The notes: generated by a model not told the origin, from the sequence alone. A stretch of DNA of 64,000 nt from Anaerolineae bacterium (GCA_024653325.1 JANLFX010000005.1:1-64000), one strand, 5' to 3'; counted from the first letter of the stretch, positions 35,322 to 60,923 are shown. Numbers and translations: made by a program.

Positions 35322-36863
35322 ATGCACACCAGGAGAATAGCTGCGTTTTCGGTTTTTGTGGTGTTGGCTATGGTGCTGGCGAGCTGCGCCACGCCGACGC
35401 CAGAGAAGATCATCGTCACCCAGCCCCCGGTCGAGGTGACTCGTATTGTGGCCGGCACACCGGAGACCATCGTCGTCACTGCCACACCTGCACCGGTGAA
35501 GGAAGAGGTCACCCTGCGTATCCTGAGCCTGGCCTGGCCGCAGACGCCGGTGGAGCAGGAACTCGCCAACAAGTACTTCACTCCTCAGACGGGCATAAAG
35601 GTGGAGATCACCGGTCCGCCCTACGAATTCGTCGAGTCGAAGGTGCGCGAGATCTGCGCCTCGCAGAGCTCCGAGTACGATCTCTTCGAGTACGACAGCC
35701 AGTGGTACGGTGGGGCCATCATGAACGGCTGCTTCGAACAGTTGGACCCATACTTCAAGAAGGACGGCCTTGACTATGACTCCACGTTTGTGCAGCCGTA
35801 TGCTACCTACAACGGCCGCTGGCCCGTGCCCGTCGGCGTGTTGACCGGCGAACTGGACTGGAAAGACTACACCGATGTGCCGCTCTACTTCATCCCCTGG
35901 ACCATCGGCACCATGATTCTCAGCTACCAGCCAGACCTGTTTGTGGAAGCCGGTATCGTGGACGCGGAGGGAAAGGCCAAACCACCGGACACCTGGGAAG
36001 AGTTTCTGGAAGACGCCAAGGCCCTCACCGTGGACGTGAATGGGAACAACTTGCGGGACAACCCCGACAAATTTGATCCCAAGAACGTGAAGCGCTACGG
36101 CCTGGGCTGGTATGCCTGCCGCATCAGCGACGGCGTCACCCAGCAATGGCTGCCTTTCCACGTCTCCTACGGGGCCAGGTTCTGGGATGAAAACACCTGG
36201 CAGGCGGAAGGCATCATCAACTCCCCCGAGGCGGTTCAGGGTTGCGAGATGTTCGCCCGCTTCTACAAGGAGGGTGTGGTAGATCCGGCCACGGCCACCT
36301 GGTTCGTGAGCGAGATTCTGGGTGCGGCCCAGACTGACAAGTTCGCCATGTCCTTCACCTGGGTCAGCTTCGCCGGTGCTTACGACGACCCCTCCGTCTC
36401 CCAGACCGCCGGCAAGTGGGCCTATGCTCCCTTCCCTGGCCACCAGTTGCCTGACGGCACCATCAGGCGCGCTGCCACCTACGGTTCCCAGGGTATGGGT
36501 ATCAACGCCTTCTCCAAGCAGAAGGAAGCCGCCTGGGAGTACATGAAGTGGTACATGTCGCCTGAGGTCCAGAAGATGCTGGTGGATGACAAGCGAGCCG
36601 GCTTCGCCTCCGCCCGCGTGGACCTGCTGGATTATCAGATGGTACCCGGCACCGCCAAGTGGGCCTCGCTGACCAGCATCATCGAGGGCTATGGCTTCGA
36701 CGTCTGGACCTACCCCGAGTACGCCCAGTTACTCGACATCCAGCAGAACTACATGAACCTGGCCTACATCGGGCAGATCGGGTGTAAAGAGGCCCTGGAC
36801 CAGATCGCCGTATTGCAGCAGCGCATCCTGGACACCAGCCCCAACAATCCCAAGAACAAGTAG
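35322..36863 (+). CDS. ABC transporter extracellular solute-binding lipoprotein (family 1, sugar)
   Basis: Lipobox 'LASCATPTP' with a Pro/Thr linker. Size and adjacency to the permeases support the call. AAGGAGG RBS before the chosen ATG. Confidence 0.7.
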   Translation: MHTRRIAAFSVFVVLAMVLASCATPTPEKIIVTQPPVEVTRIVAGTPETIVVTATPAPVKEEVTLRILSLAWPQTPVEQELANKYFTPQTGIKVEITGPPYEFVESKVREICASQSSEYDLFEYDSQWYGGAIMNGCFEQLDPYFKKDGLDYDSTFVQPYATYNGRWPVPVGVLTGELDWKDYTDVPLYFIPWTIGTMILSYQPDLFVEAGIVDAEGKAKPPDTWEEFLEDAKALTVDVNGNNLRDNPDKFDPKNVKRYGLGWYACRISDGVTQQWLPFHVSYGARFWDENTWQAEGIINSPEAVQGCEMFARFYKEGVVDPATATWFVSEILGAAQTDKFAMSFTWVSFAGAYDDPSVSQTAGKWAYAPFPGHQLPDGTIRRAATYGSQGMGINAFSKQKEAAWEYMKWYMSPEVQKMLVDDKRAGFASARVDLLDYQMVPGTAKWASLTSIIEGYGFDVWTYPEYAQLLDIQQNYMNLAYIGQIGCKEALDQIAVLQQRILDTSPNNPKNK

Positions 36864-36937
36864 CCTGTGTACAAAATTCGGGTAGACAGGGGATCACCCC
36901 TGTCTACCCTTCTCCCTTTCGCGAAAGGAGACTTCGA

Positions 36938-38041
36938 ATGGCTAACAAGGGCAAGGTCAAAGTCGGAATTATTGGCTCACAATTCGAAGCGGATATTCAT
37001 GCTGCCTCTTTTCAGATTATGCCGGAGGAAGCCGAGGTCGTGGCTGTGGCCTCGCCGACGCCCGGTCACCCCGAAGCATTGGCCAAGAAGTACGGTATTC
37101 CCCGCGTCTTCCATGACTACCGTGAGATGCTCAAAGAAAAAGACATCGAGATGGTCACCATTGCCGCGCCGAACTATCTGCACGCGCAGATGACCATTGA
37201 TATCGCCAAGGCCGGTAAGCACGTGGTCTGCGAAAAGCCGCTGTGCATGACGTTAGAAGAAGCCGATGAAATGATTGAAACCTGCAAAAAGCAGGGCGTG
37301 TTGCTCATGTATGCCGAGGAGCTATTCTTCACCCCCAAATACGTCAAAGCCAAAGAGATGGCCGCCCAGGGTGCTTTCGGCAAGGTGTACCTGGTGAAGC
37401 AGAGCGAGAAGCATTTCGGCCCCCATGCCCCCTGGTTCTGGGATGTGGAACGCTCCGGCGGCGGTGTTTTCATGGACATGGGCTGTCATGGCATCGCCTT
37501 CTGCTACTGGTTCCTGGATCGCCCGGCCATCAAGTCCGTTCTGTGCCAGATGGGCACTTACGTGCACGGCGAGATCACCAAAGGCGAGGACAACAGCATC
37601 TGCATCATCGAGTTCGAGAATGGCGCTGTCGGTCTGGTTGAAGATAGCTGGGCACGGCGCGGCGGCATGGACGACCGTATCGAGGTCTACGGTGAGGGGG
37701 GCGTGACCTACGCCAACCTGCACATGGGCAATGCCCTGCCCACGTACAGTGAATACGGCTACGGCTACGCTGTGGAAAAAGCCCCCAGCACCAAAGGCTG
37801 GAGCTATCCTGTCTTTGAAGAACTGTGGAATTACGGCTTCCCACAAGAGATGGCCCACTTTGCCCGTTGCGTGCGGGGCAAGGAGGAGCCCATTGCGACC
37901 GGCGAGGATGGCCGCGTGGTGCAGGAAGTGCTTTACGCCGGATACGAATCGGCGCGCACCGGTTGCAAGGTCCAACTGCCTTTCCGCCCCAAGGGGGTGA
38001 AGAGACCCATTGATTTGTGGTTCGCACCTCACGGGGGTTAA
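36938..38041 (+). CDS. Gfo/Idh/MocA-family oxidoreductase
   Basis: 'VGIIGSQFEADIHAASF...' Rossmann N-terminus and 'EKPLCMT' motif. Confidence 0.75.
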   Translation: MANKGKVKVGIIGSQFEADIHAASFQIMPEEAEVVAVASPTPGHPEALAKKYGIPRVFHDYREMLKEKDIEMVTIAAPNYLHAQMTIDIAKAGKHVVCEKPLCMTLEEADEMIETCKKQGVLLMYAEELFFTPKYVKAKEMAAQGAFGKVYLVKQSEKHFGPHAPWFWDVERSGGGVFMDMGCHGIAFCYWFLDRPAIKSVLCQMGTYVHGEITKGEDNSICIIEFENGAVGLVEDSWARRGGMDDRIEVYGEGGVTYANLHMGNALPTYSEYGYGYAVEKAPSTKGWSYPVFEELWNYGFPQEMAHFARCVRGKEEPIATGEDGRVVQEVLYAGYESARTGCKVQLPFRPKGVKRPIDLWFAPHGG

Positions 38042-38044
38042 CCA

Positions 38045-39472
38045 ATGCTCAATCCATGGGCAGTGCTGACTCAGCATGACATCGAATCTATCCACCACAC
38101 CTCCCTTGCTATCCTGCGCGATGTAGGGGTGAGTCTGCCCAATCAAGAGGTCCTGGAGGCCCTGGCCGGAGCCGGCGCTGACGTGGACTTCAACCACCAG
38201 GTCGCCCGCATCCCTGAGCGCCTGGTGGTTGACTCTGTCGAACGGGCAGGCAAACAGTACATCCTCTATGGCCGTGATCCCAACCGTACCGCTCGCTTCG
38301 GCTATGGTGATTTCGTCCTGGTCTCCAGCCCGGGCCAGTTTGCCTGGGTGGATGAGGATGGCGGCCCGCGCCGACAGCCCACCCAGGAGGACGCGCGCGC
38401 CGGTATTCTTGTCAGTGACGCACTGGAGCACATTGACATCGTCGGGGCCATGGGCATGCCCCTGGACATCCCCGCCGAGTACCGCGACGTGTGGATGGCT
38501 GCCGAATTGGTCAAAAACTCGACCAAGCCCACCCACGTGTGGGTGGCGAACGGCAGGTCGCTGGAGTACATCCTGCGCATCTACGAGGCGGTGAGCGGCG
38601 GCCGCCAGGCTCACCGCCAACGCCCGATGATCGCCGCCTTTATCGAACCTATCAGCCCACTCCGCTTCCCCGAGACCGGGCTCGAAATTCTCATCACCTG
38701 TGCCCGCTATGGCTTGCCTATCGCCTTCGGGCCCATGGTCCAGGCCGGGGCTACAGGTCCGGCTACCCTGGCCGGTACGTTAGCCCTGGAGAATGCGGAG
38801 ATACTGGCCGGAATCGTTCTGGCCCAACTTTTCGGGCCGGGTGTGCCGGTGTGCTACGGCGGCATACCGCACATCATGGACATGCGCTCCTCGCAGATCA
38901 GCTTCGGTGCGCCGGAGCAGGGGTTGATGGCCGTGGCCATGACCCAGATAGCGCGCTATTATGGGCTACCGGTGTACATCAACGTCGGTCTTTCCGACAG
39001 CAAACGGGTGGATATTCAATCCGGCCTGGAACGGGGGATGACCTTGCTGATGGGGGCCCTGGCTGGGGCCGACACCTTTGGGCACATGGGTATCCTGGGC
39101 GCTGACCAGGCCGCCAGTCTGGAGCAGCTCATCGTGGACAATGAGATGGCTGCTTACATCAAACGTATCCTGCGGGGATTCGAGGTCAATGAGGATACTC
39201 TGGCCCTGGATGTGATCCGCAAGGTAGGCATCGGGGGCAACTTCTTGGGAGAAGCACACACTCGCCAGCATTTCCGGCAAGAGCTATGGTTCCCCACCAC
39301 CTTCGACCGGCGGCGCTGGGATGAGTGGTGGGCCGCCGGGGCCAGGTCCATGGCCGATTGGGCGCACGAGCGCAAAACGCAGATTCTGGCCGAACACCGT
39401 CCGCCGTCATTAACACTGGAACTGACCCGCGAGCTTGACGACATCGTCGCTGCTGCCCGGCGTGAAAGGTGA
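38045..39472 (+). CDS. MttB-superfamily (trimethylamine methyltransferase-like, non-Pyl) methyltransferase
   Basis: N-terminus 'LTQHDIESIHHTSLAILRDVGV' and overall ~475 aa TIM-barrel pattern match the MttB family. No in-frame amber codon seen. Confidence 0.55.
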   Translation: MLNPWAVLTQHDIESIHHTSLAILRDVGVSLPNQEVLEALAGAGADVDFNHQVARIPERLVVDSVERAGKQYILYGRDPNRTARFGYGDFVLVSSPGQFAWVDEDGGPRRQPTQEDARAGILVSDALEHIDIVGAMGMPLDIPAEYRDVWMAAELVKNSTKPTHVWVANGRSLEYILRIYEAVSGGRQAHRQRPMIAAFIEPISPLRFPETGLEILITCARYGLPIAFGPMVQAGATGPATLAGTLALENAEILAGIVLAQLFGPGVPVCYGGIPHIMDMRSSQISFGAPEQGLMAVAMTQIARYYGLPVYINVGLSDSKRVDIQSGLERGMTLLMGALAGADTFGHMGILGADQAASLEQLIVDNEMAAYIKRILRGFEVNEDTLALDVIRKVGIGGNFLGEAHTRQHFRQELWFPTTFDRRRWDEWWAAGARSMADWAHERKTQILAEHRPPSLTLELTRELDDIVAAARRER

Positions 39473-39592
39473 GCAGTTAATGGGCCGTGGGGGGACTCAC
39501 GCTCCTGGCCGGTCTCTCGACTGACCAGGGGGCACGGTCGGGAGACCGCGCCCAGCAATTTATCAATTCGATATAATCGGGGGCGTTTTTTT

Positions 39593-40579
39593 ATGACTCA
39601 ACCAGTTCACTTTATTGGAGTGGACCTGGGCGGGACGACAATCACTGGTGGAGCGGTTAATGTCGTGTCTGGCCAGGTCCTCGGTCGCCAACAAATTCCC
39701 ACGCTGGCCAAAGAAGGCCACGATGCGGTCATGGCCCGCATGGTGGATTTAGTCCACACCATCATAGCCGATGCTGCCCTGAGCAAAGAGGACATCGGGG
39801 GTATCGGGGTGGGCCTGCCAGGCGTGTTGGACATGGAACGGGGCATAACCCTGTTTCTACCGAACTTACCCGGCGCCTGGCGCAACGTTCCACTGAAAGC
39901 AACCATGGAGGCTGGTACCGGGCTTCCCACCTACATGCTCAACGATGTGCGCTCTTTCACTCTGGGCGAGAAGACCTTCGGCGCCGGGCGTGAGGTGCAT
40001 ACCATGTTCGGCCTGGCCATCGGCACGGGCATTGGCGGAGGAATGGTGATCAACGGGCAATTGCACCTGGGCCTTGATGGAACGGCTGGAGAGGTAGGGC
40101 ATCAGATTATTGACCCGTATGGCCCGCCCTGTGGGTGCGGCAGTCACGGTTGTTTGGAAGCCTTCGCCAGTGGTCCGGCCATCACTGCCATGGCCCTCAA
40201 AGCTATCACCCAGGGCCTGACTACCAAAATCGCCGAGATGGTTGATTACGATCTGAATAAGGTCACGCCGGAGATCGTTTGCCGCGCAGCCCAGGCCGGA
40301 GACCCTATCGCTATAGACATCTACGAGCGGGCCGGTTTCTACATCGGCGTGGGGGTGGCCAATCTGATCACCATCATCAGCCCGCAGATGGTAGTGATCG
40401 GCGGTGGGGTGGCCCAGGCCGGCGAGCTGCTCTTCGCCCCTATCCGCCGCACGGTGCAGGAGCGCGTCCACGTTACACCGTTGGAAAAAGTGCAAATCGT
40501 GCCCGCCCAACTAGGCACCAGTGCCGGTTTGATCGGGGCGGCGGTGTGGGCCTCCTTACAAACAGCGCTAGGGAAGTAA
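39593..40579 (+). CDS. ROK-family sugar kinase (no HTH)
   Basis: 'IGVDLGGTTI', 'GIGGGMVINGQ' and Zn motif 'CGCGSHGCLE' fit the ROK glucokinase-like family. Confidence 0.7.
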   Translation: MTQPVHFIGVDLGGTTITGGAVNVVSGQVLGRQQIPTLAKEGHDAVMARMVDLVHTIIADAALSKEDIGGIGVGLPGVLDMERGITLFLPNLPGAWRNVPLKATMEAGTGLPTYMLNDVRSFTLGEKTFGAGREVHTMFGLAIGTGIGGGMVINGQLHLGLDGTAGEVGHQIIDPYGPPCGCGSHGCLEAFASGPAITAMALKAITQGLTTKIAEMVDYDLNKVTPEIVCRAAQAGDPIAIDIYERAGFYIGVGVANLITIISPQMVVIGGGVAQAGELLFAPIRRTVQERVHVTPLEKVQIVPAQLGTSAGLIGAAVWASLQTALGK

Positions 40580-40586
40580 CCAGGTC

Positions 40587-41711
40587 ATGGACCATCGCGA
40601 GCGCGTGCTGGCTGCCGTCAACCATCATGAGCCGGACCGGGTGCCAACGGCCTTGTGGGGCAGCGCCTATGGGCTCACCGATCCCTTGTATTTCGACCTC
40701 CTGAAACACCTGGGTCTGGGTGATCCGGTACCACCGTTCCGGCAGCGGCATGGCCACACGGTGAACTACTACGATGATCGGGTGCTGGATGCCCTCGATA
40801 CCGACGTGCGCCATGTCTGGCTGGGCTTTACCGATCTGGGGGGGCCGCCCCAGGGAGGGGGGCTGGATGCCTGGGGTGTGGGCTGGCAGCAGACTGGCAT
40901 CTACCTGGGACCGACCTCTCATCCGCTGGAAGCGGCGAGCATCGAAGACCTGGAGACCTATCCGTGGCCGGAGGTAGAGTCTCTCGTTCGCCGCGACGAG
41001 CTGCGTCAGCGGGCCAAATATCTGAGAGAAAAAACGGATTACGCCGTAGTCGGACGGGCTGCTGATTCCTATGGCTTGCTGGAGCGCGCTTCCCAGCTAC
41101 GCCGGATGGACAGGTTCATGGTGGACCTGGCCCTGGACGAAGCTTTTGCCACCGCGCTGATCAGCAAAATAGCGGACGTGCTGTACCGATTACTGGAGAT
41201 ATACCTGGACACGGCCGGCCCATACCTGGACATCATGGAACTGCCTGGCGACGACTACGCCGCCCAGAACCCGCTCATCTCTCCACGCATGTTCGATAAG
41301 TTGTTCAAGGAGCAGTGGCGCAGACTGATTCACCTGATTAAAGAAGCCGCGCCTCATTGCCGGGTCCTTTTCCACTCCGACGGGCGCATGGAGCCTTTCC
41401 TGGGATCGTTAACCGACATCGGGGTGGACATCTTTCACTGTTTGGAACCCCTGCCCGGGGTGGACATGGCTCAGATCAAACGCGATTATGGGGATAGGCT
41501 TTGTTTCTGGGGGGCTATAGACATTAAGCAGGCGTTGCAAGGTGACGAGGCGCAAGTGGAGGCGGAGGTGCGAGAGCGCATCAGAGCATTGGCCCCGGGT
41601 GGGGGCTATGTCTTGGCTCCGGCCAATCACCTCCAGCCGGATGTTCCTGCGAAAAACGTCGTCGCTCTTTTCCAGGCTGCTCACAGGTACGGAGTATATC
41701 CGCTCGTGTGA
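40587..41711 (+). CDS. Uroporphyrinogen-decarboxylase (URO-D) family protein, MtaA/MtbA-like methyltransferase fold
   Basis: 'RVLAAVNHHEPDRVPTALWGS' N-terminus and C-terminal 'GYVLAPANHLQPDVP' are typical of URO-D-like methylcobamide methyltransferases. Confidence 0.6.
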   Translation: MDHRERVLAAVNHHEPDRVPTALWGSAYGLTDPLYFDLLKHLGLGDPVPPFRQRHGHTVNYYDDRVLDALDTDVRHVWLGFTDLGGPPQGGGLDAWGVGWQQTGIYLGPTSHPLEAASIEDLETYPWPEVESLVRRDELRQRAKYLREKTDYAVVGRAADSYGLLERASQLRRMDRFMVDLALDEAFATALISKIADVLYRLLEIYLDTAGPYLDIMELPGDDYAAQNPLISPRMFDKLFKEQWRRLIHLIKEAAPHCRVLFHSDGRMEPFLGSLTDIGVDIFHCLEPLPGVDMAQIKRDYGDRLCFWGAIDIKQALQGDEAQVEAEVRERIRALAPGGGYVLAPANHLQPDVPAKNVVALFQAAHRYGVYPLV

Positions 41712-41894
41712 AAGGTTCTAACTGAGGTCTGGCGAATTTAGAGGCGTCCACATCTTGGGATTAGCGACGGGGGAAAGCACAAGATGTGGGAGTTCATAGT
41801 AGCGGCTTCAGCCGCTTTTCACCATCCTGGACGGCTGAAGCCCTCACTACGACAAAAAAACGCCGATGTCCAAGTTCTAATTTAACGAGGAGGT

Positions 41895-43097
41895 TTGAAG
41901 ATGCACAAAATAACCATGTTAGGTACGGGTTTGATCGGCTTGTTTTACACGATGACATTGAACAAACGGCGCGGCGGTGACCGGGTGCACGTCGTGTATT
42001 CGCCGACGGAAAAACACGTCCAAAGTTTTGCCCAGGACTGGGGCATCCCCAAATGGACCACCAACATGGCGGAAGCCATCAACGACCCGGAAACGGATGT
42101 GGTGGTGGTTGGGCTGCCGAATTTCGTGCACAAAGAGGCGGTTATCATGGCCGCCGAAGCAGGTAAAGCCGTGTTGTGTACCAAACCGCTGGGCCGAAAC
42201 GCGGCTGAGGCCAAAGCCATGCTTGACGCAGTGGAAAAGGCGGGGGTTTTTCACGGCTACCTCGAAGACCTGGTCTACACTCCTAAGATGCTGAAATCCC
42301 TGCAGTTCGTCAAAAACGGAGCGCTGGGCAGGATATTATGGGTTCGCTCGCGGGAAACGCATGGCGGTCCGCACGGTGCCTGGTTCTGGGACCCGCAGTT
42401 GGCAGGCGGCGGGGCCATTGTGGACATGGGCTGCCACTGCATCGAAATTGCCCGCAATTTTATAGGCAAAGATAACCGGCCTGTGGAGGTCATGTGCTGG
42501 GCCGATACCCTGGTCCACCCCATTGAAAGCGAGGATCATGGCATTGGCCTGATCAGGTTTGAGAGTGGGGCCGTCGGCCAGTTCGAGGTGAGCTGGGCCT
42601 TCAGAGGTGGGATGGACCTGCGGGACGAAGTCGCGGGCACCGAAGGGACCATCTGGGTTGACCACTTCCTCAGAACCGGATTCGAGGTGTTTACCGCCGC
42701 TGGCCGGAAAGGGTACGTCTCCGAGAAGGCCGAGGGTGAAACTGGCTGGCTCTTCCCCGTGGGCGATGAGGTCCACGAACTGGGGTATCCACACATGTTC
42801 GACGATATGTTGAACGCACTGGATAGCAACCAGGAACCGATGGAGACTTTTTATGATGGCTACGTGGTGAATGCGATCATGGATGCCTGTTATCGCTCGG
42901 CTCAATCGAAACGCTGGGAGCCGGTGGAGCTCGAGGTGTGGCGGGGAAAACCTCAACCGGTCGAGAAGAAGGCTCCCGTGGAGTACGAGGGTCAGTACAT
43001 CGTCATTAAGGAAGAACACATGCCAGACGGCAAGACGAAATTGTTGCTCAAGGACAAGGCGACCAATAGGATCATCGAAAAGGTCGTGTCGAAATAG
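41895..43097 (+). CDS. Gfo/Idh/MocA-family oxidoreductase
   Basis: '[13 protein letters not shown]' and 'TKPLGRN' motifs. Confidence 0.75.
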
Positions 43098-52710: not shown

Positions 52711-53922
52711 ATGGTATCCAGTTCACTACCGTTCAATAAATCCGATTTCAGACAGCAATTGGAAGCAGAATTGGTCGGGAATATTCTGCCCTTCTGGATG
52801 ACCCATGTCGTGGATGAGGTCAATGGTGGCTTTTATGGGGCTGTGGACAATGACCTGCGGGTTCACAATGAGGTGCCACGCTCGGCAATTTTGTGCGCCC
52901 GCATTCTCTGGACCTACGCTACGGCCTATCGGATATTGGGTGTGGAGCAGTACTTATCGCTGGCCCGCCGGGCCTACGACTATCTCACCAACGTTTTTGG
53001 GGATCAGGAATATGGCGGCCTGTACTGGGCAGTGGATTATAAGGGCTCCCCGGTCTTTGACCGTAAGCACCACTATGCTCAGGCCTTTGGGATTTACGCT
53101 TTGAGTGAGTATTATCGGGCTACGCAGGAACCGCAGAGCTTGATGCTGGCGCAAACGCTGTTTCGCTTGTTAGAAAAGTATGCTTATGATGCGGTCTATC
53201 AAGGCTATATTGAGGGCCGCAGCCGTGCATGGGAGACCTTGACGGATATGCGCCTGAGCGACAGAGAGCCTAATTGCCGTAAATCCATGAACACCATGTT
53301 ACACATCTTAGAAGCGTATTCCAACTTGTTGCGGGTGTGGGACGATGCACATCTCAAAGCTCAACACAGGGCTTTGCTGACGGTCTTCCTGCAGCATATT
53401 CTTGACCAGCAGACCGGCCATTTTAAGCTCTTTTTCGACGATCAGTGGCGTTCACTTTCCGAGAACGTATCCTTTGGGCATGACATCGAAGGCAGTTGGC
53501 TGCTATGGGAAGCCGCTGAGCTGCAGGGTGACCCGCCACTATCGGCGCAAGCTCGAGAGTCCGCGATCAGCATGGCGGCAGCCGTGTATCGGGAGGGATT
53601 GGACGAGGATGGCAGCCTGTTCTACGAAAGTGGTCCACAGGGTCTGGTGGATACCAGCAAGGCCTGGTGGGCCCAGGCTGAGGCGGTAGTTGGCTTTTAT
53701 AACGCGTACCAGCTTTCAGGTCAGGAGCATTTTGCGCAGGCCGCCTATCGGTGCTGGACCTATATTCAGGCTAAAATGGTGGATCGTCATCATGGGGATT
53801 GGTTTAAACGACTACATCGGGATGGTACGCCGGATCATACTAGCTATAAGGCTGGTCCCTGGGAATGTCCCTATCACCACAGCCGGGCTTGCTTCGAAAT
53901 GTTGGCCCGTCTGAGCGATTGA
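52711..53922 (+). CDS. N-acylglucosamine 2-epimerase (AGE) family epimerase/isomerase (cellobiose-2-epimerase / mannose-isomerase-like)
   Basis: (alpha/alpha)6-barrel family pattern 'ILPFWMTHVVDEVNGGFYGAVDND...', with conserved His/Glu positions. Lower GC than its surroundings. Confidence 0.65.
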   Translation: MVSSSLPFNKSDFRQQLEAELVGNILPFWMTHVVDEVNGGFYGAVDNDLRVHNEVPRSAILCARILWTYATAYRILGVEQYLSLARRAYDYLTNVFGDQEYGGLYWAVDYKGSPVFDRKHHYAQAFGIYALSEYYRATQEPQSLMLAQTLFRLLEKYAYDAVYQGYIEGRSRAWETLTDMRLSDREPNCRKSMNTMLHILEAYSNLLRVWDDAHLKAQHRALLTVFLQHILDQQTGHFKLFFDDQWRSLSENVSFGHDIEGSWLLWEAAELQGDPPLSAQARESAISMAAAVYREGLDEDGSLFYESGPQGLVDTSKAWWAQAEAVVGFYNAYQLSGQEHFAQAAYRCWTYIQAKMVDRHHGDWFKRLHRDGTPDHTSYKAGPWECPYHHSRACFEMLARLSD

Positions 53923-53979
53923 GATTGCTACCCTCCCGCTGGCTTCGCCGTTGAGCCGGCGGGAGGGTGTGTTATGCTC

Positions 53980-54750
53980 TCACGCCGGGCTGGTAAATCT
54001 CTGCTCCACCCACTGTTGAGCCGTGCGCGCCCGGCGACATTCCGGACAGAGTGCCCACTGTTCCTCGATTTCGGGGAACATCTCACCGAGGAAGGCCATT
54101 GGTTCAGGGGCGAAGAGTTTACCACATTGGGGACACTTGTGCAGCTCTACTGTGGTGTGCCAAGTATGCAGGATGCGTTTATTGCCCCGGTCCTCTATTT
54201 TGATCGCTTTAGTGGGGCAGATTTCGGCACACGCCCCACAGCCAATGCAGGTGGCGGCTTGTATGTCGAAGGGAGTGCCCACCCGGCGCTCCATGCCCCG
54301 CCCAATGAAACCGATAGCCGCCGCACCTATGGCCTCACGGCAAACGCGCACGCACAGACCGCAAAGTACGCATAGCTCCTCGGCGCGCTCCGGTGGGGGA
54401 GTGCCGAAACGGGAAGCAGTGACCCCCTCTTGGGCAGCCATCTCCTGTATCACCTCGGATTGTGGACAACGGCTCAGCAGGAACTCCAGAGCCAGGCGAC
54501 GAGCACTTACCGCTTCCGGCGAGTTGGTCTCGACCGCCAGCCCCTCTTCTACCGGGTAAGCGCAGGAAGCGACAAGGGCATGGCGCGGTGCAGCGATGGA
54601 CACCATGCACAACCGGCATGCACCATAAGGGGCCAATCCTTCGTGGAAGCAGAGCGTGGGCAACTCCACTCCGGCGGCGCGCACTGCCTGCAGGATGGTT
54701 GTGCCCTCGGGCACGGTCACAGGCTGTTCGTTCACGGTAAGATTTATCAT
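53980..54750 (-). CDS. HoxU/NuoG-N-terminal-like iron-sulfur protein ([2Fe-2S] + [4Fe-4S] clusters)
   Basis: 'CFHEGLAPYGACRLCMVSI' 2Fe-2S motif, His-containing cluster motif, and C-terminal 'CIGCGACAEICPTKA' ferredoxin motif in about 256 aa. Confidence 0.6.
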   Translation of the reverse strand: MINLTVNEQPVTVPEGTTILQAVRAAGVELPTLCFHEGLAPYGACRLCMVSIAAPRHALVASCAYPVEEGLAVETNSPEAVSARRLALEFLLSRCPQSEVIQEMAAQEGVTASRFGTPPPERAEELCVLCGLCVRVCREAIGAAAIGFIGRGMERRVGTPFDIQAATCIGCGACAEICPTKAIKIEDRGNKRILHTWHTTVELHKCPQCGKLFAPEPMAFLGEMFPEIEEQWALCPECRRARTAQQWVEQRFTSPA

Positions 54751-54754
54751 TGCC

Positions 54755-56638
54755 TCACCTCACGATCTCGATGGCCCCTACCGGGCATACGTCATAACAG
54801 ATGCGGCAACGGGTGCATAGCTCCGGGTTGATGGTGTGCGGCTTTTTCTTCTCCCCGCTGATAGCTCCTGCAGGGCACTCACGGCGGCACAGACCGCAGC
54901 CATTGCACAGATCTGGTACGATGGCGAGTCGGATCAGCGCGCGGCAGACGCCCGCCGGGCAGCGTTTCTCCTCCACATGGGCTTCGTACTCATCGTGGAA
55001 GTAGCGCAATGTAGAAAGCACCGGGTTAGGGGCTGTCTGACCCAACCCGCACAACGAGGCCATCTTGACCCACCTAGCTACTTCTTCCAGCAGATCCAGG
55101 TCCTCTGGTGTCCCCTTACCTTCGACAATGCGGGTGAGGATCTCGTACATATAGTGGGTACCCTCGCGGCAGGGCGTGCATTTGCCACACGATTCGGCCA
55201 TGGTAAAACCGATGAAATAGCGGGCCACATCCACCATGCAGGTGTTCTCGTCCATGACCACCATGCCGCCAGAACCCATGATGGAACCGGCCTGGGTCAG
55301 GGTCTCGTAGCTGATGGGCAGGTCAAACAGGCGGGCCGGCAGGCAGCCGCCGGAAGGGCCACCGGTCTGCACCGCTTTCACCGCTTTGCCATTTAATCCC
55401 CCGCCGCCGATGCCCTCGATCATTTCTCGCAGGGTCAGGCCCAGCGGTACTTCCACCAGGCCGGTATTGGCTACCCGGCCCACCAGGGAAAAGACCACCG
55501 TGCCTGCATTGTTCTCCGTACCGATGGCGGCGTACCACCCGGCCCCCCGATTGATGATCACCGGCACGGTGGCCAGGGTCTTGACGTTGTTGATGACGGT
55601 GGGCTTACCCCACAGCCCACTGATCGCCGGAAAGGGCGGTTTGGGGCGGGGCTCGCCCAATCCGCCCTCGATGGACGAGATGAGGGCTGTCTCTTCCCCG
55701 CAGACGAAGGCCCCCGCCCCGCGCACGATAGTGATGTTGAAATCGAAGCCGGACTCGAGGATGTTTTCCCCCAGCAGCCCCAGCTCCTGGGCGCGGGCGA
55801 CGGCCTGGGTGACACGTTCGACAGCCAGCGGGTACTCGTCGCGCACGTAGATGTATCCCTCATGCGCGCCGATGGCGTATCCGGCGATAGTCAAGCCCTC
55901 GATGACACTGTGGGGATCGCTTTCCAACACGGTGCGGTCCATGTACGCGCCCGGATCGCCCTCATCGCCGTTGCAGATGACATATTTGGGTTGTCCGGGA
56001 GCATCGTGGCAGACCTGCCACTTGCGCCCGGTGGGGAAACCGGCTCCGCCTCGCCCGCGCAACCCGGCGCGCAATACTTCGTCAATCACCTGTTCCGGGG
56101 TGAGGTCCAGCAAAGCGTGGGCCATGGCTTCATAGCCTCCTTGCGCGATGTATTCCTCGATGCTGGTGGGGTCAATCAAGCCACAGTTGCGCAGGATAAT
56201 CTTGCGCTGACGGGCATAGAAAGGCAGTTCGTTGAGGCGGGGTAAACCTCCCGCAGGTTTGGAACCTGCGGGAGGTTCCTTTTCTTCCGGGATGATGGCC
56301 AGCGCGCCTTCTGTCGGTAGGTTACCCTCGGCCAGGGCGGCGATCAGCTCGCGGGCCCGGTCGGCGGTCATGCGGGCATAGAGGACGCGATCCCGGCCTG
56401 GCATCCGTACCTCGACCAGTGGTTCTTGCTGGCAATAGCCCAGGCAGCCAGTGGCGACGAGCATGAGGTCCAGCTCTCGTTGCAAGGCTTCGTCGCGCAG
56501 GGTATCGTACACGGCAGCAGCTCCCGTGGCCAGACCACAGGTGGCCATCCCCACGCTAACCTTCAGTCGGGAGGGATAAAGAGTGGATAGGCCCTTGGCG
56601 CGCAACGTCTCTAAATCGGAACGGCTACATACCTTCAT
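54755..56638 (-). CDS. NuoF/HoxF/HydB-like NAD(P)H-binding flavoprotein subunit (FMN, [4Fe-4S], N-terminal Trx-like [2Fe-2S], C-terminal 2x[4Fe-4S])
   Basis: NADH/FMN site 'GRGGAGFPTGRKW', 'SLCGLGQTAPNPVLS', and C-terminal 'CNGCGLCRRECP...CTRCRICYDVCP'. Confidence 0.7.
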   Translation of the reverse strand: MKVCSRSDLETLRAKGLSTLYPSRLKVSVGMATCGLATGAAAVYDTLRDEALQRELDLMLVATGCLGYCQQEPLVEVRMPGRDRVLYARMTADRARELIAALAEGNLPTEGALAIIPEEKEPPAGSKPAGGLPRLNELPFYARQRKIILRNCGLIDPTSIEEYIAQGGYEAMAHALLDLTPEQVIDEVLRAGLRGRGGAGFPTGRKWQVCHDAPGQPKYVICNGDEGDPGAYMDRTVLESDPHSVIEGLTIAGYAIGAHEGYIYVRDEYPLAVERVTQAVARAQELGLLGENILESGFDFNITIVRGAGAFVCGEETALISSIEGGLGEPRPKPPFPAISGLWGKPTVINNVKTLATVPVIINRGAGWYAAIGTENNAGTVVFSLVGRVANTGLVEVPLGLTLREMIEGIGGGGLNGKAVKAVQTGGPSGGCLPARLFDLPISYETLTQAGSIMGSGGMVVMDENTCMVDVARYFIGFTMAESCGKCTPCREGTHYMYEILTRIVEGKGTPEDLDLLEEVARWVKMASLCGLGQTAPNPVLSTLRYFHDEYEAHVEEKRCPAGVCRALIRLAIVPDLCNGCGLCRRECPAGAISGEKKKPHTINPELCTRCRICYDVCPVGAIEIVR

Positions 56639-57104
56639 CGCTCACGCCTCCTGCCTCTTGCTCCCGGTACTTTCTCAGAATGCGCGGCAGCAGGTCAGCT
56701 CTAAGGCGGCCGTAGGTATCGCCGTCCACGCGCATCACCGGGGACATGCTGCATGAACCGACGCAGTGCACTGTTTCGACGGTGAAAGCGCGGTCGTCCG
56801 TTGTCTCTCCTGGCCTCACTCCCAGGGTAGATTCCAGTTTTTCCAGCAGTTTCTCACCGCCGCGGATGTAACAGGCTGTGCCCAGGCAGACGTGGATGGT
56901 GTGACGGCCTCGGGGCTGGAAGCTGAAGGCGGCGTAGAAAGTAGCCGCGCTGTACACCTGGCTCAGGGGCACACCCAGCTCTTCGGCTGCCCGGCGTAGT
57001 TCCTCTTCGGGCAGATAGCCGTACTCAGCGTTGATGGCGTGTAACCTGGCCAGCAACGCGCCCCCGGCCGGGGGTGGTGGTTGAGGAATAAGTGGCATGG
57101 TCAC
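56625..57104 (-). CDS. NuoE/HoxE/HydC-like thioredoxin-fold [2Fe-2S] subunit
   Basis: 'CLGTACYIRGGEKLL...CVGSCSMSPVMRVD' is the NuoE Cys pattern. Overlaps the nuoF-like gene by 14 bp. Confidence 0.7.
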   Translation of the reverse strand: MTMPLIPQPPPPAGGALLARLHAINAEYGYLPEEELRRAAEELGVPLSQVYSAATFYAAFSFQPRGRHTIHVCLGTACYIRGGEKLLEKLESTLGVRPGETTDDRAFTVETVHCVGSCSMSPVMRVDGDTYGRLRADLLPRILRKYREQEAGGVSDEGM

Positions 57105-57119
57105 CTCCGATAGGGGATA

Positions 57120-57154
57120 CAGGTGCGACGCACTTCCGAAGTGCGTCGCACCTG
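57120..57154. terminator. REP-like hairpin family B copy between cooS and the nuoE-like gene
   Basis: 'caggtgcgacgcac-ttccgaa-gtgcgtcgcacctg' starts 9 nt after the cooS stop. Confidence 0.5.
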
Positions 57155-57162
57155 TTCACGTG

Positions 57163-59043
57163 CTAAATCCCCAACGCCGCTCGCTTCTCCATGATGTGGT
57201 CAACCATCAGTTGCGCGGCCTTGAAGGGATCGGGTTCGACGGCGAACTTAGCGCCCACGACGCCCTCGGCACCCTCGGTCAGTAGCTTGGTCACCTCGGG
57301 GCCACCCAGCACTGGCGGCACAGTGCCCAACACGGTGAAGATGCCCGAGGACACCACGTAAGCGCCGATGCTGACCGCCTTTTCGCTCATCCATTCTGGG
57401 GCCGCGCCGGCCACCGGCAAATCGCTGATGTCCACCCCCAGGGCGTTGGCGATGGCCGAGCAGGCCACCAGGATGCGGCTAATGTCCACGCAGGAGCCCA
57501 TGTGTAGCACCGGCGGGATGCCCAGGGCCTTGCACACACCCTTTAACCCCTCGCCGGCCAGGTCTGCCGCTTCCGGCAGGAGCAACCCGGCCTTGGCGGC
57601 GGCGATGGCGTTGCAGCCCGTGGTCACCACCAGCACGTCTTGTTTGATCAACTCCTTAAGCATATTTATGTGGCCATAATCGTGCTGAATCTTGGGGTTG
57701 TTGCAACCGACCACCCCGGCGATGCCCTTGATCGCGCCCGACTTGACTGCTTCCAACAGCGGGTTGAGGGTACCGCCCAACGCACTGACGATAGCCTCCA
57801 CGCTGAACCCGACCATGCATTCGCTCTTTTCTTTGGGGATGCGTACTTGGCCGGGTTTGCGGAAGCGGTAATTCTCCACGGCGGTGCGCACGATTTCTTT
57901 GGCGATTTCGTAAGCCCGCTCTTCGTGGAACTCGATGTGGGTCGCACCGGGGAACTTGGCCTTGGGCGAGGTAGAGATGAGTTTGGTGTGGAAACAGCCT
58001 GCTACGGTTCCCAGGGCAGGCATGATGCATTGCACATCCACGATCATCGCCTCGACCGCGCCGGTGGTGATGGCCAGCTCCTGTTGCAAGAAGTTGCCCG
58101 CCGGGGGAATGCCGTGGCGCATGAGCACCTCGTTGCCAGTACAGCACATACCGGTCACGTTGATGCCTTTAGCCCCGTATTTCTTGGCCAGGGCCAGCAT
58201 CTCGGGATCTTGTGCGGCGGCGACAATCATCTCCGAGAGGGTGGGTTCATGGCCGTGGACGATGATGTTCACCTGGTCTTCCTTGAGCACGCCCAGGTTG
58301 GCCTCTGATTTGATGGGCTTGGGCGTGCCAAATAGCACGTCAGAAAGTTCGGTAGCGATCATGGAGCCGCCCCAACCGTCGGCGATGGATGCTTTGAGCC
58401 CCTGCAGGATCAAATTCACGGGGTCGTTGTCCACGCCAATGTGGGTGCGATGCATGATCTCCACAATCTCGCGGTCAATGCCGCGCGGGTCAATGCCCAG
58501 CGATTGCCACCGGGCGACGCGCTTCTGCGGCGCGCGGCGGGTGAACTGAATGGGACCTTCCTGTTTGCCGAATTCAGCGTAGATGGCGCGGGCCAGGTCC
58601 AGAGCGATTTGCTCTTTGCTCCGTCCCTCAGTCTCGATACCGTACTCTGCGGCCAGGGCTTTGAGCTTGGCTTCGTCCTTGATTTCGTAGCCACCGCCCT
58701 TGCCCTCGGCGGTGAGCAGCAGGGTGTGGGCGATGTCCCGCCCGTGATCGGAGTGAGCGGCAGCACCGGCGGCGATCATGCGCAGCAAATTGCGAGCGAC
58801 AATAATATCCGCTGTGGCTCCGCAGATGCCTTTCTTGGGGCCTTCTTCCTCAAAGGGACTGATGCGGCAGGGCCCCATGTTACAATTGCGGCAGCAGACC
58901 CCCAGCTCGCCGAAGCCACATTGGGGCAACATGGCTTCGTAGCGATCCCACGCTGTTTCGATGCCTAGCTCTTCGGCCCGGGCCAGCATCTCGTGAGTGG
59001 CGGGATCAATGCTTCGGCTCAAAATCTTCTCACTGTACGCCAT
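57163..59043 (-). CDS. cooS: Anaerobic Ni-dependent carbon monoxide dehydrogenase catalytic subunit
   Basis: N-terminal B/D-cluster motif 'CGFGELGVCCRNCNMGPCRI' and C-cluster Cys/His pattern. 626 aa. AGGAGGTG RBS. Confidence 0.8.
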   Translation of the reverse strand: MAYSEKILSRSIDPATHEMLARAEELGIETAWDRYEAMLPQCGFGELGVCCRNCNMGPCRISPFEEEGPKKGICGATADIIVARNLLRMIAAGAAAHSDHGRDIAHTLLLTAEGKGGGYEIKDEAKLKALAAEYGIETEGRSKEQIALDLARAIYAEFGKQEGPIQFTRRAPQKRVARWQSLGIDPRGIDREIVEIMHRTHIGVDNDPVNLILQGLKASIADGWGGSMIATELSDVLFGTPKPIKSEANLGVLKEDQVNIIVHGHEPTLSEMIVAAAQDPEMLALAKKYGAKGINVTGMCCTGNEVLMRHGIPPAGNFLQQELAITTGAVEAMIVDVQCIMPALGTVAGCFHTKLISTSPKAKFPGATHIEFHEERAYEIAKEIVRTAVENYRFRKPGQVRIPKEKSECMVGFSVEAIVSALGGTLNPLLEAVKSGAIKGIAGVVGCNNPKIQHDYGHINMLKELIKQDVLVVTTGCNAIAAAKAGLLLPEAADLAGEGLKGVCKALGIPPVLHMGSCVDISRILVACSAIANALGVDISDLPVAGAAPEWMSEKAVSIGAYVVSSGIFTVLGTVPPVLGGPEVTKLLTEGAEGVVGAKFAVEPDPFKAAQLMVDHIMEKRAALGI

Positions 59044-59070
59044 GGGAAATCACCTCCTCATGATTTCGGA

Positions 59071-59619
59071 TCATTGGCTGGCTAACTGTTTCTGACTTTC
59101 TAATGCGCCCAGGAATTGTTTAGCGGCGGTGAGAGTGGCTTGACGAATGACTTCAGTGGGATACTTCAGGGTGAGGGCTTTGGTGGGGCAGGCTTCCACG
59201 CAGGCCGGACCGCCGGGCCGGTCCACGCACAAGTCACACTTGAAAGCGGCTCTCTTTTCACGACCGGCCACCTCGGTGGTGGCGACGTGGACCGCACCGA
59301 AGGGGCAGACCATCGTGCATAACCGACAGGCGATGCACAGCCGCTGGTCCACCGCCGTGTAGGTCTCGGTGCGATAGGTCGCGCCGGTAGGGCAGACTCG
59401 CACGCAGGGTGCGTCCTCGCATTGGCGACACTGGGTGGAGAGTTTTACACTGTTCACCTGGACCACCCAATTACGGCGGTGCAACCTCTCGCCAGCCAGT
59501 ACAGCACCGATGATGGTGCCCGCTGTGGTGTGAGCCGCTGCGCAGGCCAGCTCGCAAGTGTGACAGCCCACGCAACGCTCTGGATTGACCAGAATGAATG
59601 GGCCTTCCAGCTTCTTCAT
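59071..59619 (-). CDS. cooF: CooF-like 4x[4Fe-4S] ferredoxin
   Basis: Multiple CxxCxxCxxxCP motifs ('CVGCHTCELAC', 'CRQCEDAPCVRVCP', 'CIACRLCTMVCP', 'CDLCVDRPGGPACVEACP'). Lies immediately upstream of cooS. Confidence 0.65.
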   Translation of the reverse strand: MKKLEGPFILVNPERCVGCHTCELACAAAHTTAGTIIGAVLAGERLHRRNWVVQVNSVKLSTQCRQCEDAPCVRVCPTGATYRTETYTAVDQRLCIACRLCTMVCPFGAVHVATTEVAGREKRAAFKCDLCVDRPGGPACVEACPTKALTLKYPTEVIRQATLTAAKQFLGALESQKQLASQ

Positions 59620-59990
59620 AGCGTTTTTTCACCTCCTTTCCGTGCAAGCATTGGGGACTGGACCTGTTTTTCAGTGGTTTAGCACTACGCTTCCTCGGAA
59701 ATAAGCCGCCTCACACAAAGGCGCAAGGCACGCCAAGGTATGAACTGGAAGAGAGTTCTTATTTCTCTGCGTGCTAGCGCCTCGGCGGTGAAAACTTGAT
59801 TCAATTGTCAAAGAATGTGGTTTGTGAAGATGGCTGGTGGCGACTGGTCTCGAGCTGAGGAGAGGATAGTAGCAGAAGTCGGGGTTGCCTGATAATACCA
59901 CAAAATTGCGCCAGAATCAACTAAAACTGGCTAAGGAATATTTTAAACCCTTTGTGTCCTTCGTGTCCTTTGTGGTTTTCGAACAAGTTC

Positions 59991-60923
59991 TCAGCCCAGG
60001 TGTGAGCCCAGGAATTCCTGCTGGCCGCGCAGAAAGTCGGCAATGGACATGGCCCGTTTACCGGCAAGTTGCACCTCGAAAAGCAGCAATGCACCCTCGC
60101 CAGTAGTCACCGCCGTTCCCTCAGGCAAGGTGATTACCTGTCCCGGCGGCTGGGCCCCGTGCCACTCCACCAGTGCAGCGCGCAACACTTTAAGCCGCTG
60201 GCCTTGCCACATCGTATAGGCTCCCGGCCAGGGGTTATAGGCTCGCACCTGCCGTGACAACTGCCCAGCCGGGCGCGTCCAGTCCAGCCACCCCTCTTCC
60301 TTGCGCAGCGGCCTGCACATCGTGGCCTGGCTATGATCCTGCGGGCGCGGCTGAATCTCCCCGGCCAGCCAACGGGGCAGGGTTTGTATCAATAAATCGG
60401 CGCCCAGAACAGCCAACCGTTCGGTCAACGAGCCGGCTGTATCGGCAGGGTCAATGGACAAGGGAGTCTGAGCCAGAATGGGACCGGTGTCCATGCCCTC
60501 GTCCAGGAGCATGATCGTCACCCCGGTCTCTTTATCGCCGGCCAAGATGGCTGCCGGGATAGGGGCTGCCCCCCGCCAACGGGGAAGCAGTGAAGCGTGG
60601 ACGTTCAGACAGCCCTTGGGCGGTATGGCCAGCACATCCGGCCTGAGTATTTGCCCAAACGCAGCGATCACGATTAGCGTGGGTGACAGAGCGCGCAGTT
60701 TCTCCACGGCCTGGGGATTGCGCAGCGTTGCCGGTTGCCAGACCGGCAATCCCCGGGCCAGGGCGGCTTCTTTCACGGGGGAGGCGACCAGTTTGCGCCC
60801 CCGGCCAGCCGGACGGTCTGGTTGGGTAACCACGCAGACCAGTTCATAACTGGCTTGAGTGGCCAGCGCCTCCAGGGTAGGCACGGCAAAGCGGGGCGTA
60901 CCCATAAACACAATGCGTTCCAT
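59991..60923 (-). CDS. fmt: Methionyl-tRNA formyltransferase
   Basis: 'RIVFMGTPRFAVPTLEAL' and 'NVHASLLPRWRGAAPI' motifs. Confidence 0.85.
   Translation of the reverse strand: MERIVFMGTPRFAVPTLEALATQASYELVCVVTQPDRPAGRGRKLVASPVKEAALARGLPVWQPATLRNPQAVEKLRALSPTLIVIAAFGQILRPDVLAIPPKGCLNVHASLLPRWRGAAPIPAAILAGDKETGVTIMLLDEGMDTGPILAQTPLSIDPADTAGSLTERLAVLGADLLIQTLPRWLAGEIQPRPQDHSQATMCRPLRKEEGWLDWTRPAGQLSRQVRAYNPWPGAYTMWQGQRLKVLRAALVEWHGAQPPGQVITLPEGTAVTTGEGALLLFEVQLAGKRAMSIADFLRGQQEFLGSHLG

Follow-up and report, generated by a model that had tools for sequence, protein, structure and literature searches.

Electron-bifurcating enzymes built on a BfuABC core were defined as the Bfu family by Schut 2022 (PMC9304861), where a 'Codh-Bfu' class was also predicted from four Firmicute sequences, in Firmicutes only. 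In that class, found in Acetohalobium arabaticum and Clostridium cellulovorans, the carbon monoxide dehydrogenase (CODH) genes are placed between bfuB and bfuA, and a six-subunit enzyme (A-F) was proposed (Schut 2022, PMC9304861). A hypothetical CodhABCSF of Sporomusa silvacetica was later predicted to have a WorABCSL-like build, with a WorA-type Zn-finger and helix, and was stressed as not purified (Feng 2025, PMC12318220). The closest solved architecture is WorABCSL, a tungsten aldehyde oxidoreductase-Bfu complex of Acetomicrobium mobile (PDB 9MQX). The structure paper for that enzyme (9MQX) describes an adaptor, WorA, that lacks cluster A3 and carries a Cys4 zinc finger at the site where other BfuA proteins have A5. 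The C-terminal helix of WorA recruits the polyferredoxin WorS; it mimics the C-terminal helix of WorS and docks in the same WorS groove, and electrons run S4-A4-A2-A1 to the BfuBC core. A simpler arrangement is found in Geobacter sulfurreducens and clostridia, where CooS and CooF are encoded with an FAD/NAD(P) oxidoreductase (FNOR), an arrangement thought to hand CO electrons to NAD(P)+ (Inoue 2019). NuoE/F/G-like COGs have been noted near Ni-CODH genes only within a Wood-Ljungdahl context group (Inoue 2019). Here we analysed a 64-kb stretch of DNA (the window) from an Anaerolineae bacterium (GCA_024653325.1 JANLFX010000005.1:1-64000; all positions are counted from the window start) and found a cooF-cooS-bfuC-bfuB-bfuA cassette that is a member of the already predicted class, here in phyla not reported for it before and with its genes in another order. 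It has in common with Codh-Bfu/CodhABCSF the BfuABC core, the Ni-CODH, the CooF polyferredoxin and a BfuA with Zn-finger and predicted C-terminal helix, as well as the proposed reaction, in which CO is the third substrate of a bifurcating enzyme. It differs from the Firmicute version, compared by its published description, in having five genes in the order given and in occurring in Chloroflexota and Desulfobacterota. Our literature search did not find the cassette described in either of these phyla.

The cassette consists of five tightly packed open reading frames (ORFs) that run from 59619 down to 53980 on the minus strand of the window:

59071 to 59619, minus strand: cooF, 182 residues, 16 Cys in four 4Fe-4S motifs, matching Pfam Fer4_11 and related families
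57163 to 59043, minus strand: cooS, 626 residues, TIGR01702
56625 to 57104, minus strand: bfuC, 159 residues, PF01257, NuoE/HoxE-like, with [2Fe-2S] cluster C1
54755 to 56638, minus strand: bfuB, 627 residues, Nuo51 FMN, SLBB and NADH_4Fe-4S domains and a C-terminal 2x[4Fe-4S] domain
53980 to 54750, minus strand: bfuA, 256 residues, Fer2_4 and 4Fe-4S domains, a WorA-type adaptor

The original prediction had read this strand as encoding CooF, CooS and NuoE-, NuoF/HydB- and HoxU-like proteins in that order, and the ORFs fall exactly at 53980-59619. It had further stated that the window holds no hydrogenase or formate dehydrogenase subunit, no cooA or rcoM regulator and no cooC or acs gene. Pfam scans of 47 window ORFs (10 plus 37 more of roughly 140 residues or longer) gave the same picture, with no hydrogenase, formate dehydrogenase, CooC/CbiA-type NTPase, ACS, CooA or RcoM among them.

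We then asked how widely this gene order occurs. CooS was surveyed in one genome per GTDB species with a six-sequence CooS alignment as query, and the 80 closest CooS loci were sorted by tblastn with the five window proteins. The results revealed the five-gene cassette in at least 21 GTDB species genomes: 19 loci could be followed through bfuB, most of them holding bfuA too, and 2 ended at contig ends after bfuC. The carriers were Anaerolineae and Desulfobacteraceae or 'delta' metagenome-assembled genomes (MAGs), belonging to Chloroflexota and Desulfobacterota, some of them on contigs between 116 and 818 kb in length, 710 kb and 818 kb among them. The closest GTDB locus was that of an Anaerolineae MAG, with a CooS identity of 97%. 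A deposited protein with 100% identity to the window BfuA is likewise assigned to an Anaerolineae MAG, and the neighbouring genes on its JGI metagenome contig match those of the window. When five loci (L001, L002, L004, L007 and L008) were read through, the five-gene order was kept, the flanks were all different, and BfuB was 72-90% identical to that of the window. The recurrence of the order in many genomes with unrelated flanks indicated that the adjacency is not due to chance. Two further loci, L038 (Dehalococcoidales) and L049 (Anaerolineae), had the order cooS-cooF'-bfuC-bfuB-bfuA. All Methanosarcinales loci among the 80 had cooS followed by another CooF subtype (~40% identity) and no Bfu genes, and so had many Desulfobacterales and some Chloroflexota loci. 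A neighbour-joining tree placed the Bfu-linked CooS sequences in one clade that mixes the two phyla, and the identities of CooS and BfuB to the window proteins co-varied (r = 0.85, n = 21), suggesting that the cassette travels and diverges as a unit. Synteny in relatives and a CooS phylogeny had been named in the original prediction as ways to check it, and both came out in its favour. All predicted metal ligands were conserved in 19-22 of 22 cassette sequences.

CooS scored 768 bits against TIGR01702, the anaerobic CO dehydrogenase catalytic subunit family (cutoff 478), and its closest solved structure was 6t7j (866 bits), an active enzyme from Thermococcus sp. AM4, followed by the enzymes of D. 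vulgaris and C. autoethanogenum and enzyme IV of C. hydrogenoformans. The motifs HGHEP, GMCCTGNE, VDVQC, VGCNNP, TTGCN, MGSCVD and PEWMSEKA were identical to 6t7j and invariant in 22/22 cassette sequences; equally invariant were the ligand positions of the D, B and C clusters (C42, C50, C51, C54, C59, C74, H265, C300/301, C339, C447, C477 and C518) and the catalytic residues K555 and H97. From the best hits and the scheme of Inoue 2019 we infer that CooS belongs to clade E, which takes in CooS proteins located with hydrogenases or with FNOR. CooF was found to be a HydN/HycB-like polyferredoxin for four [4Fe-4S] clusters, with all 16 Cys kept in 20/20 cassette homologues. Its best solved relatives were HycB4/HycB3 of the filament-forming hydrogen-dependent CO2 reductase (HDCR), HycB of formate hydrogenlyase (FHL) and WorS (9mqx_E). 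It ends in a conserved C-terminal tail, ..ARQFLEALESQ.., for which the consensus across the cassette family is ..TARQFLEALESQ...

The remaining three proteins had been taken for a Hox-like diaphorase in the original prediction. We found instead that the best solved relatives of BfuB, BfuC and BfuA were all subunits of proven electron-bifurcating BfuABC (HydABC-type) enzymes, namely NiFe-HydABCSL (7t2r), NfnABC (9n5u), HydABC (7q4v, 8a6t and 7p5h) and WorABCSL (9mqx). For BfuB the top match was 7t2r_B, the HydB of A. mobile NiFe-HydABCSL (747 bits), followed by NfnB, several HydB chains and WorB, whereas the non-bifurcating NuoF and FdsB reached about half the top score and aligned to the core alone. 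The A. mobile NiFe-HydB to which it is closest is a member of BfuB clade 49, which includes the Firmicute Codh-Bfu. BfuB matched PF01512, PF10531, PF10589 and PF00037/PF14697, which is the Bfu domain set, and carried ~150 extra N-terminal residues with a thioredoxin-like domain containing three Cys. Its C-terminal Cys aligned with clusters B3 and B4 of 7t2r_B; these eight residues (C578, C581, C584, C588, C608, C611, C614 and C618) were kept in 19-21 of 22 cassette sequences, and a GltD fusion at locus L013 is among the exceptions. The B1-cluster ligands were conserved in the cassette sequences as well, and so were residues H554, C560 and C565 at the B2 site, which in this family takes Zn or a cluster in the four-helix domain. 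In BfuC, for which the closest solved chains were 7t2r_C, 8a6t_C and 7q4v_C, all HydC/BfuC subunits of bifurcating enzymes, the C1 ligands C73, C78, C114 and C118 were conserved in 22/22. Thus the module is a BfuABC core, in which BfuB keeps a C-terminal two-cluster domain that HoxF and NuoF lack.

BfuA aligned end to end with WorA (9mqx_A, E = 2.9e-49, residues 3-245 on 6-240), and the two adaptors are of similar length (256 residues in the window, 247 in WorA). Its sequence provides for the [2Fe-2S] cluster A1 and, by two complete CxxCxxCxxxC motifs, for the [4Fe-4S] clusters A2 and A4. A3 is missing: the segment that matches the HxxxCxxCxxxxxC of HydA holds a single Cys, C95, as it does in WorA. 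Residues C206, C209, C235 and C238 aligned with the Zn-finger Cys of WorA and were kept in 20/20 cassette sequences, as were all 16 cluster and Zn-finger Cys together. The protein that had been called HoxU is accordingly a WorA-type adaptor, which differs from the N-termini of HoxU and NuoG by a missing N5-like cluster and by the Zn-finger near its C-terminus. A Hox-type or complex I assignment was also tried with NCBIfam and was rejected, because the HoxE (146 bits, cutoff 224), HoxU (109 bits, cutoff 333) and NuoF scores stayed under the equivalog cutoffs and partner genes were absent; no HoxY/HoxH or other hydrogenase gene was present in the window or in the gene calls of L001, L002, L004, L007 and L008. 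The sub-threshold matches reflect the same protein superfamilies as HoxEFU/NuoEFG. The differences are that the window holds neither HoxYH nor another catalytic partner, and that HoxF and NuoF have neither the extra N-terminal domain of BfuB nor its 2x[4Fe-4S] domain. The likeness to WorABCSL extends over the whole assembly, with WorB homologous to BfuB, WorC to BfuC and WorS to CooF, an adaptor without A3 and with a Cys4 Zn-finger, and predicted C-terminal helices of adaptor and polyferredoxin that resemble each other.

This last feature was followed in the tails of the two proteins. The conserved end of BfuA, RTA(R/Q)QW(I/V)EQ (consensus ..RTARQWIEQ..), and that of CooF share the motif [TS][AS]x[QKR][FWY][LIVM]. 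Within the last 40 residues it was found in 16/20 CooF and 13/20 BfuA sequences, compared with 1/224 background window ORF tails, and the tails without the exact motif carried near variants such as AAKQFL. This likeness, seen at the level of sequence, mirrors the helix mimicry between WorS and WorA and favours a physical coupling of the two halves of the cassette, in which BfuA would probably be clamped to CooF by a C-terminal helix that bears the CooF-tail motif and is buttressed by the Zn-finger.

We wanted to gain insight into whether the two halves are also transcribed together, which the original prediction had called uncertain on account of a hairpin between them:

57119 to 57155, minus strand: REP-like hairpin, a perfect 18-nt inverted repeat in the 58-bp cooS-bfuC spacer, with no T-run/U-tract

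Related palindromes, resembling repetitive extragenic palindromic (REP) elements, occur at three sites in the window (~2640-2676, ~13227-13262 and 57119-57155), all of them between co-directional minus-strand genes. They have the core AGGTGCGACGCAC in common and differ by compensatory changes (GCGAC/GTCGC versus GCAAC/GTTGC). With up to two mismatches the 13-mer core had 12 matches, against 1.8 expected. The label given to the hairpin is therefore justified. The same core was found in the cooS-bfuC spacers of L002, L012, L016 and L022, and in almost all relatives with a spacer of at least 50 nt the spacer was occupied by a long, nearly perfect hairpin, these hairpins falling into several types unrelated in sequence; the folding energies of these spacers lay 2-12 standard deviations below shuffled controls (L018, mostly masked N, was uninformative). 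In L009 (=L001; 3150-3250), L015 (=L004; 8879-9020) and L023 (2572-2660) tandem repeats of (GTGATGC)n or (TGGTAGN)n fold into very long hairpins, so that the type of element differs by species and its position is the same. An intrinsic terminator was considered and rejected for the window spacer: no T-run follows the hairpin, and the terminator scan gave no call there. A consensus scan found no promoter-like site in this spacer, and in L007, L010, L029, L032 and L048 the spacer is reduced to 4-13 nt. On these two grounds cooFS and bfuCBA are likely to be co-transcribed, and of the earlier claim the hairpin stands and the doubt is lessened. The hairpin at 57119-57155 may act as an mRNA stabiliser, a processing element or a partial attenuator. 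The spacer hairpins as a group may be REP insertions tolerated in one permissive spacer, or they may have been selected for more cooFS than bfuCBA message.

Partner modules are exchanged around the cassette in its natural variants. Nested inside the Bfu-linked CooS clade is a Chloroflexota subclade with a cooS-cooF' arrangement; in L033, the one member scanned downstream, cooS-cooF' is followed by a Pyr_redox_2/Rubredoxin_C flavoprotein gene. At least in L033, an FAD/NAD(P) oxidoreductase thus occupies the slot of BfuCBA, suggesting that what follows CooS/CooF is a pyridine-nucleotide module of one kind or another. The FNOR clusters described above also combine a clade E CooS and a CooF with a module that reduces pyridine nucleotide; they differ from the window cassette in that FNOR is a single Pyr_redox_2 flavoprotein without a ferredoxin branch, and that their CooF subtype is only ~40% identical and is encoded downstream of cooS. 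At L028 (2003-6782), in a Desulfobacca MAG, cooF-cooS is followed by a WorA-like bfuA (263 residues) without bfuC and bfuB, and a 310-residue Pyr_redox_2 (TrxB/FNR-like) gene follows after a 580-bp gap; this looks like a minimal, adaptor-only version. Conversely, L006 (4213-16599, Desulfobacteraceae) has a bfuC-bfuB-bfuA set without cooS, with a BfuB 74% identical to that of the window. Downstream of it are a transposase fragment, a CooF/WorS-like polyferredoxin, an Oxidored_FMN/Pyr_redox_2 enzyme, electron transfer flavoprotein (ETF) alpha and beta subunits and a CCG-domain Fe-S protein, which may represent another third-substrate module on the same Bfu core. A BfuCBA without CooS fits the idea of a 'plug', one core serving different catalytic modules.

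Based on these results, we consider it fairly probable that a single operon, made up of these five genes, encodes a soluble CooS-CooF-BfuABC complex of the 'Codh-Bfu'/'CodhABCSF' type. In the proposed path, CO would be oxidised at the Ni,Fe C-cluster of CooS, and the electrons would leave through the B and D clusters of CooS to the four [4Fe-4S] clusters of CooF. They would enter BfuA at A4 and run A4-A2-A1 to B1 and on to the FMN of BfuB, where NAD(P)+ would be reduced. By analogy with the solved Bfu enzymes, a second path from C1 to B3/B4 would reduce ferredoxin at the same time, with free ferredoxin docking on the C-terminal domain of BfuB; ferredoxin is thus probably reduced together with NAD(P)+. 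In its presumed physiological direction, and written for NAD+, the net reaction would be CO + H2O + NAD+ + Fd(ox) -> CO2 + NADH + Fd(red). The CO:NAD(P)+ oxidoreductase that had been proposed from the window is therefore retained as the best-supported explanation on genomic evidence, in agreement with the published predictions. Two of its details changed. Ferredoxin had been linked to the enzyme through CooF, which is most likely an internal wire from CooS to BfuA, and the term confurcating had been used, where the CO-oxidising direction corresponds to bifurcation.

Several points weigh against this explanation. With E0' = -520 mV, CO can reduce both ferredoxin and NAD+ directly, so that bifurcation is not thermodynamically required (Schut 2022, PMC9304861). 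Bifurcation would pay off at trace CO: by our own arithmetic each tenfold fall in CO raises the CO2/CO couple by ~30 mV, which brings it to roughly -360 mV at sub-ppm levels, and at very low CO its potential would lie between those of NAD and ferredoxin, following the argument of Schut 2022 (PMC9304861). The Codh-Bfu class is a bioinformatic prediction and has never been purified (Feng 2025, PMC12318220), and the evidence given here is likewise genomic. The strong hairpin parts the cooFS half from the bfuCBA half, and no cooC-type gene was found in the window or in the gene calls of L001, L002, L004, L007 and L008. Of the four canonical [2Fe-2S] Cys, BfuB has three in its N-terminal domain (C34, C65 and C69), and this leaves the state of cluster B5 uncertain; the three-Cys pattern is common to the solved chains 9n5u_B (NfnB), 8oh5_B and 9bov_B, and 7t2r_B has CxxxxC. 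At L013 (4253-7432) the C-terminal 2x[4Fe-4S] domain of BfuB is swapped for GltD/NfnB-like Fer4_20 and Pyr_redox_2 domains. Similar proteins of ~1090 residues (P0100, P0105, P0106, P0111, P0117 and P0120) were 73-78% identical to the window BfuB, which hints at an NADP(H) branch instead of ferredoxin in BfuB of this type. Finally, an AlphaFold2 (AF2) model of BfuA from a 34-sequence alignment was of low confidence (pLDDT 56, pTM 0.43), with a helix at 236-253, and was too poor for a fold search, so that the case for BfuA rests on its alignment to WorA.

The variant at L013 bears directly on the most serious alternative, in which the same five-protein complex exists and BfuABC is a plain diaphorase. 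All electrons from CO would then reach NAD(P)+, and the clusters at the C-terminus of BfuB would be idle or an alternative exit. If a GltD-like NADPH/FAD domain can replace the ferredoxin-type domain, the ferredoxin branch would be dispensable or exchangeable; CO is a reductant strong enough for NAD+ without any coupling, the sister group has a simple FAD/NAD(P) oxidoreductase in place of BfuCBA, and the B5 site in the N-terminal domain of BfuB is incomplete. We nevertheless regard this alternative as rather unlikely. The eight B3/B4 Cys, the C1 ligands and the B2-site residues are kept in 19-22 of 22 sequences, which is not expected of idle clusters, all close solved relatives are bifurcating enzymes, and the characterised non-bifurcating homologues all lack B2-B5 (Schut 2022, PMC9304861). 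The complex could also run in reverse, with NADH and reduced ferredoxin driving the reduction of CO2 to CO by confurcation, for one-carbon (C1) assimilation or redox balancing. Both Ni-CODH and Bfu enzymes can work in either direction, and the cassette is present in Desulfobacteraceae, many of which use the Wood-Ljungdahl pathway. For C. autoethanogenum, a CODH adjoining CooF and FNOR has moreover been suggested to be CO2-reducing (Inoue 2019). The reverse direction appears very unlikely all the same, given that no acs, cdh or other CO-consuming gene was found in the window or the cassette loci read, that these loci have no evident sink for free CO, and that CooS is closest to the CO-oxidising clade E enzymes from Thermococcus.

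A further alternative would dissolve the complex into adjacent independent enzymes, with CooFS as a stand-alone ferredoxin-reducing CODH and the NuoE/F/HoxU-like proteins serving a distant hydrogenase or formate dehydrogenase, or forming a separate NADH:ferredoxin module. The REP-like hairpin between the halves and the CooS-free BfuCBA of L006, with its BfuB of 74% identity beside other redox genes, would agree with this, and the survey of partner genes in the source genome spans the 64-kb window alone. Independence of the two halves is nonetheless extremely improbable when set against the evidence for their linkage. Adjacency and order are kept in at least 21 species of two phyla with unrelated flanks, the spacer is 13 nt or shorter in five loci, and the divergence of CooS and that of BfuB co-vary. 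BfuA itself has no catalytic domain and has a Zn-finger and a predicted helix that would recruit a partner, with a motif matching the CooF tail; L028 keeps only CooF-CooS-BfuA, and no hydrogenase or formate dehydrogenase gene was found in the cassette loci read (L001, L002, L004, L007 and L008).

Within the preferred reading, a soluble bifurcating CooS-CooF-BfuABC complex, the assembly might go beyond a single unit of each protein. The predicted C-terminal 'TARQ[FW][LI]E' helix common to CooF and BfuA raises the distinctly unlikely possibility of a short iron-sulfur nanowire of polymerised CooF that carries several CooS dimers on one BfuABC 'plug', as in WorABCSL, with the hairpin setting an excess of CooFS, as an enzyme for scavenging trace CO. 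In such an arrangement the hairpin would stabilise or attenuate the transcript and give the needed surplus of CooFS over BfuCBA. The 1:3 ABC:SL stoichiometry and the nanowire have been shown for Wor only, where the catalytic subunit is the tungstopterin protein WorL instead of the Ni-CODH CooS, and because CooS is normally a homodimer the geometry of a Codh assembly must differ from that of Wor. If true, NADH and reduced ferredoxin would be made at CO levels where an ordinary CODH fails on ferredoxin. This would give Anaerolineae and Desulfobacteraceae a scavenging enzyme, and L008 also has haem-copper oxidase genes nearby. These genes, COX1, COX3, COX4 and CtaG (16685-21911), lie within 8 kb of the cassette on its 710-kb contig, and some cassette hosts may respire oxygen.

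Collectively, the published span of four Firmicute sequences is far too narrow. Uncultured Anaerolineae and Desulfobacteraceae commonly have the five-gene form, which is compact and highly conserved. A bifurcating CODH was predicted in 2022 and 2025 and has never been isolated, and the cassettes offer many candidates for expression and cryo-electron microscopy. Variants relevant to the mechanism are among them, including the GltD-like domain in place of the ferredoxin-binding domain, the adaptor-only version, which has BfuA and neither BfuB nor BfuC, and the sister clade with an FAD/NAD(P) oxidoreductase. If the enzyme is bifurcating, it would account for the ability that anaerobes and microaerobes may have to conserve energy when CO is very low, and the design of a nanowire plus a bifurcating plug would extend past tungsten enzymes.

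The surroundings of the cassette in the window contained the following features:

52711 to 53922, plus strand: gene of the GlcNAc/cellobiose 2-epimerase family, convergent neighbour of bfuA
53931 to 53967, between the convergent bfuA and epimerase genes: hairpin CCCTCCCGC...GCGGGAGGG, read from the sequence, with no T-run
59892 to 59969, minus strand: two sigma-70-like promoter candidates from a consensus scan, in the fmt-cooF gap
upstream of cooF, minus strand too: fmt, separated from cooF by a 370-bp intergenic gap

The switch of strand to an epimerase gene had likewise been seen correctly in the original prediction. The fmt-cooF gap is likely to be the promoter region of the operon, and the number of promoter candidates in it was not above that in shuffled sequence, which makes them weak evidence; the hairpin at 53931-53967 likely marks the operon end. 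A ribosome-binding site (RBS) of the GGAGG type precedes all five genes. For bfuC the ATG at 57098, behind GGAGGTG, is a likelier start than 57104. There is a 14-nt overlap of bfuB with the end of bfuC, and 4 nt lie between bfuB and bfuA. The start of bfuB differed among gene callers, which gave either 627 residues (an ATG within the 14-nt overlap with bfuC) or 597 residues (internal Met31; 56549-56638; L089 3380); the latter is the gene call of the Joint Genome Institute (JGI), in which bfuB begins 30 codons later. The solved homologues open with a strand that matches residues 25-30, and the longer form or a nearby start is therefore favoured.

The upstream 140 nt of 21 cassette loci had no common motif beyond the GGAGGTG RBS, and no CooA or RcoM site was found there. 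Riboswitches and other known RNAs were sought by an Rfam E-value scan of 53500-60500 and rejected, the scan giving only two small RNA (sRNA) matches, both under threshold (26-28 bits, cutoffs 42-77). Among the relatives, genes for a GAF-HisKA_3 histidine kinase and a REC-GerE response regulator lie directly upstream of the Bfu-type cassette in L002 (4767-6561), and a kinase and regulator of the same types lie directly upstream of the FNOR-type cooS cluster in L033 (4591-6386). The pair has the DosS/DosR domain architecture, is absent from the window and is a possible gas or redox sensor.

Elsewhere in the window we observed an MTTB-family (trimethylamine methyltransferase-like) gene at 38045-39472 and a URO-D/MtaA-like gene at 40587-41711, both embedded among sugar ABC transporter, ROK and GFO/IDH/MocA genes (28877-43097). 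The two genes may belong to a quaternary-amine or methyl-transfer system, in a setting that would be unusual for one. At 9484-13156 there are two adjacent genes for large ATPases, one with AAA_35 and a C-terminal CAP12/Pycsar-type TIR-like stretch and the other with AAA_22, after which comes a REP-like hairpin; the pair may serve in anti-phage defence. At 19514-24112 we found a 1216-residue SNF2/DUF3670 helicase gene and, next after it, one for a SWIM zinc-finger protein.

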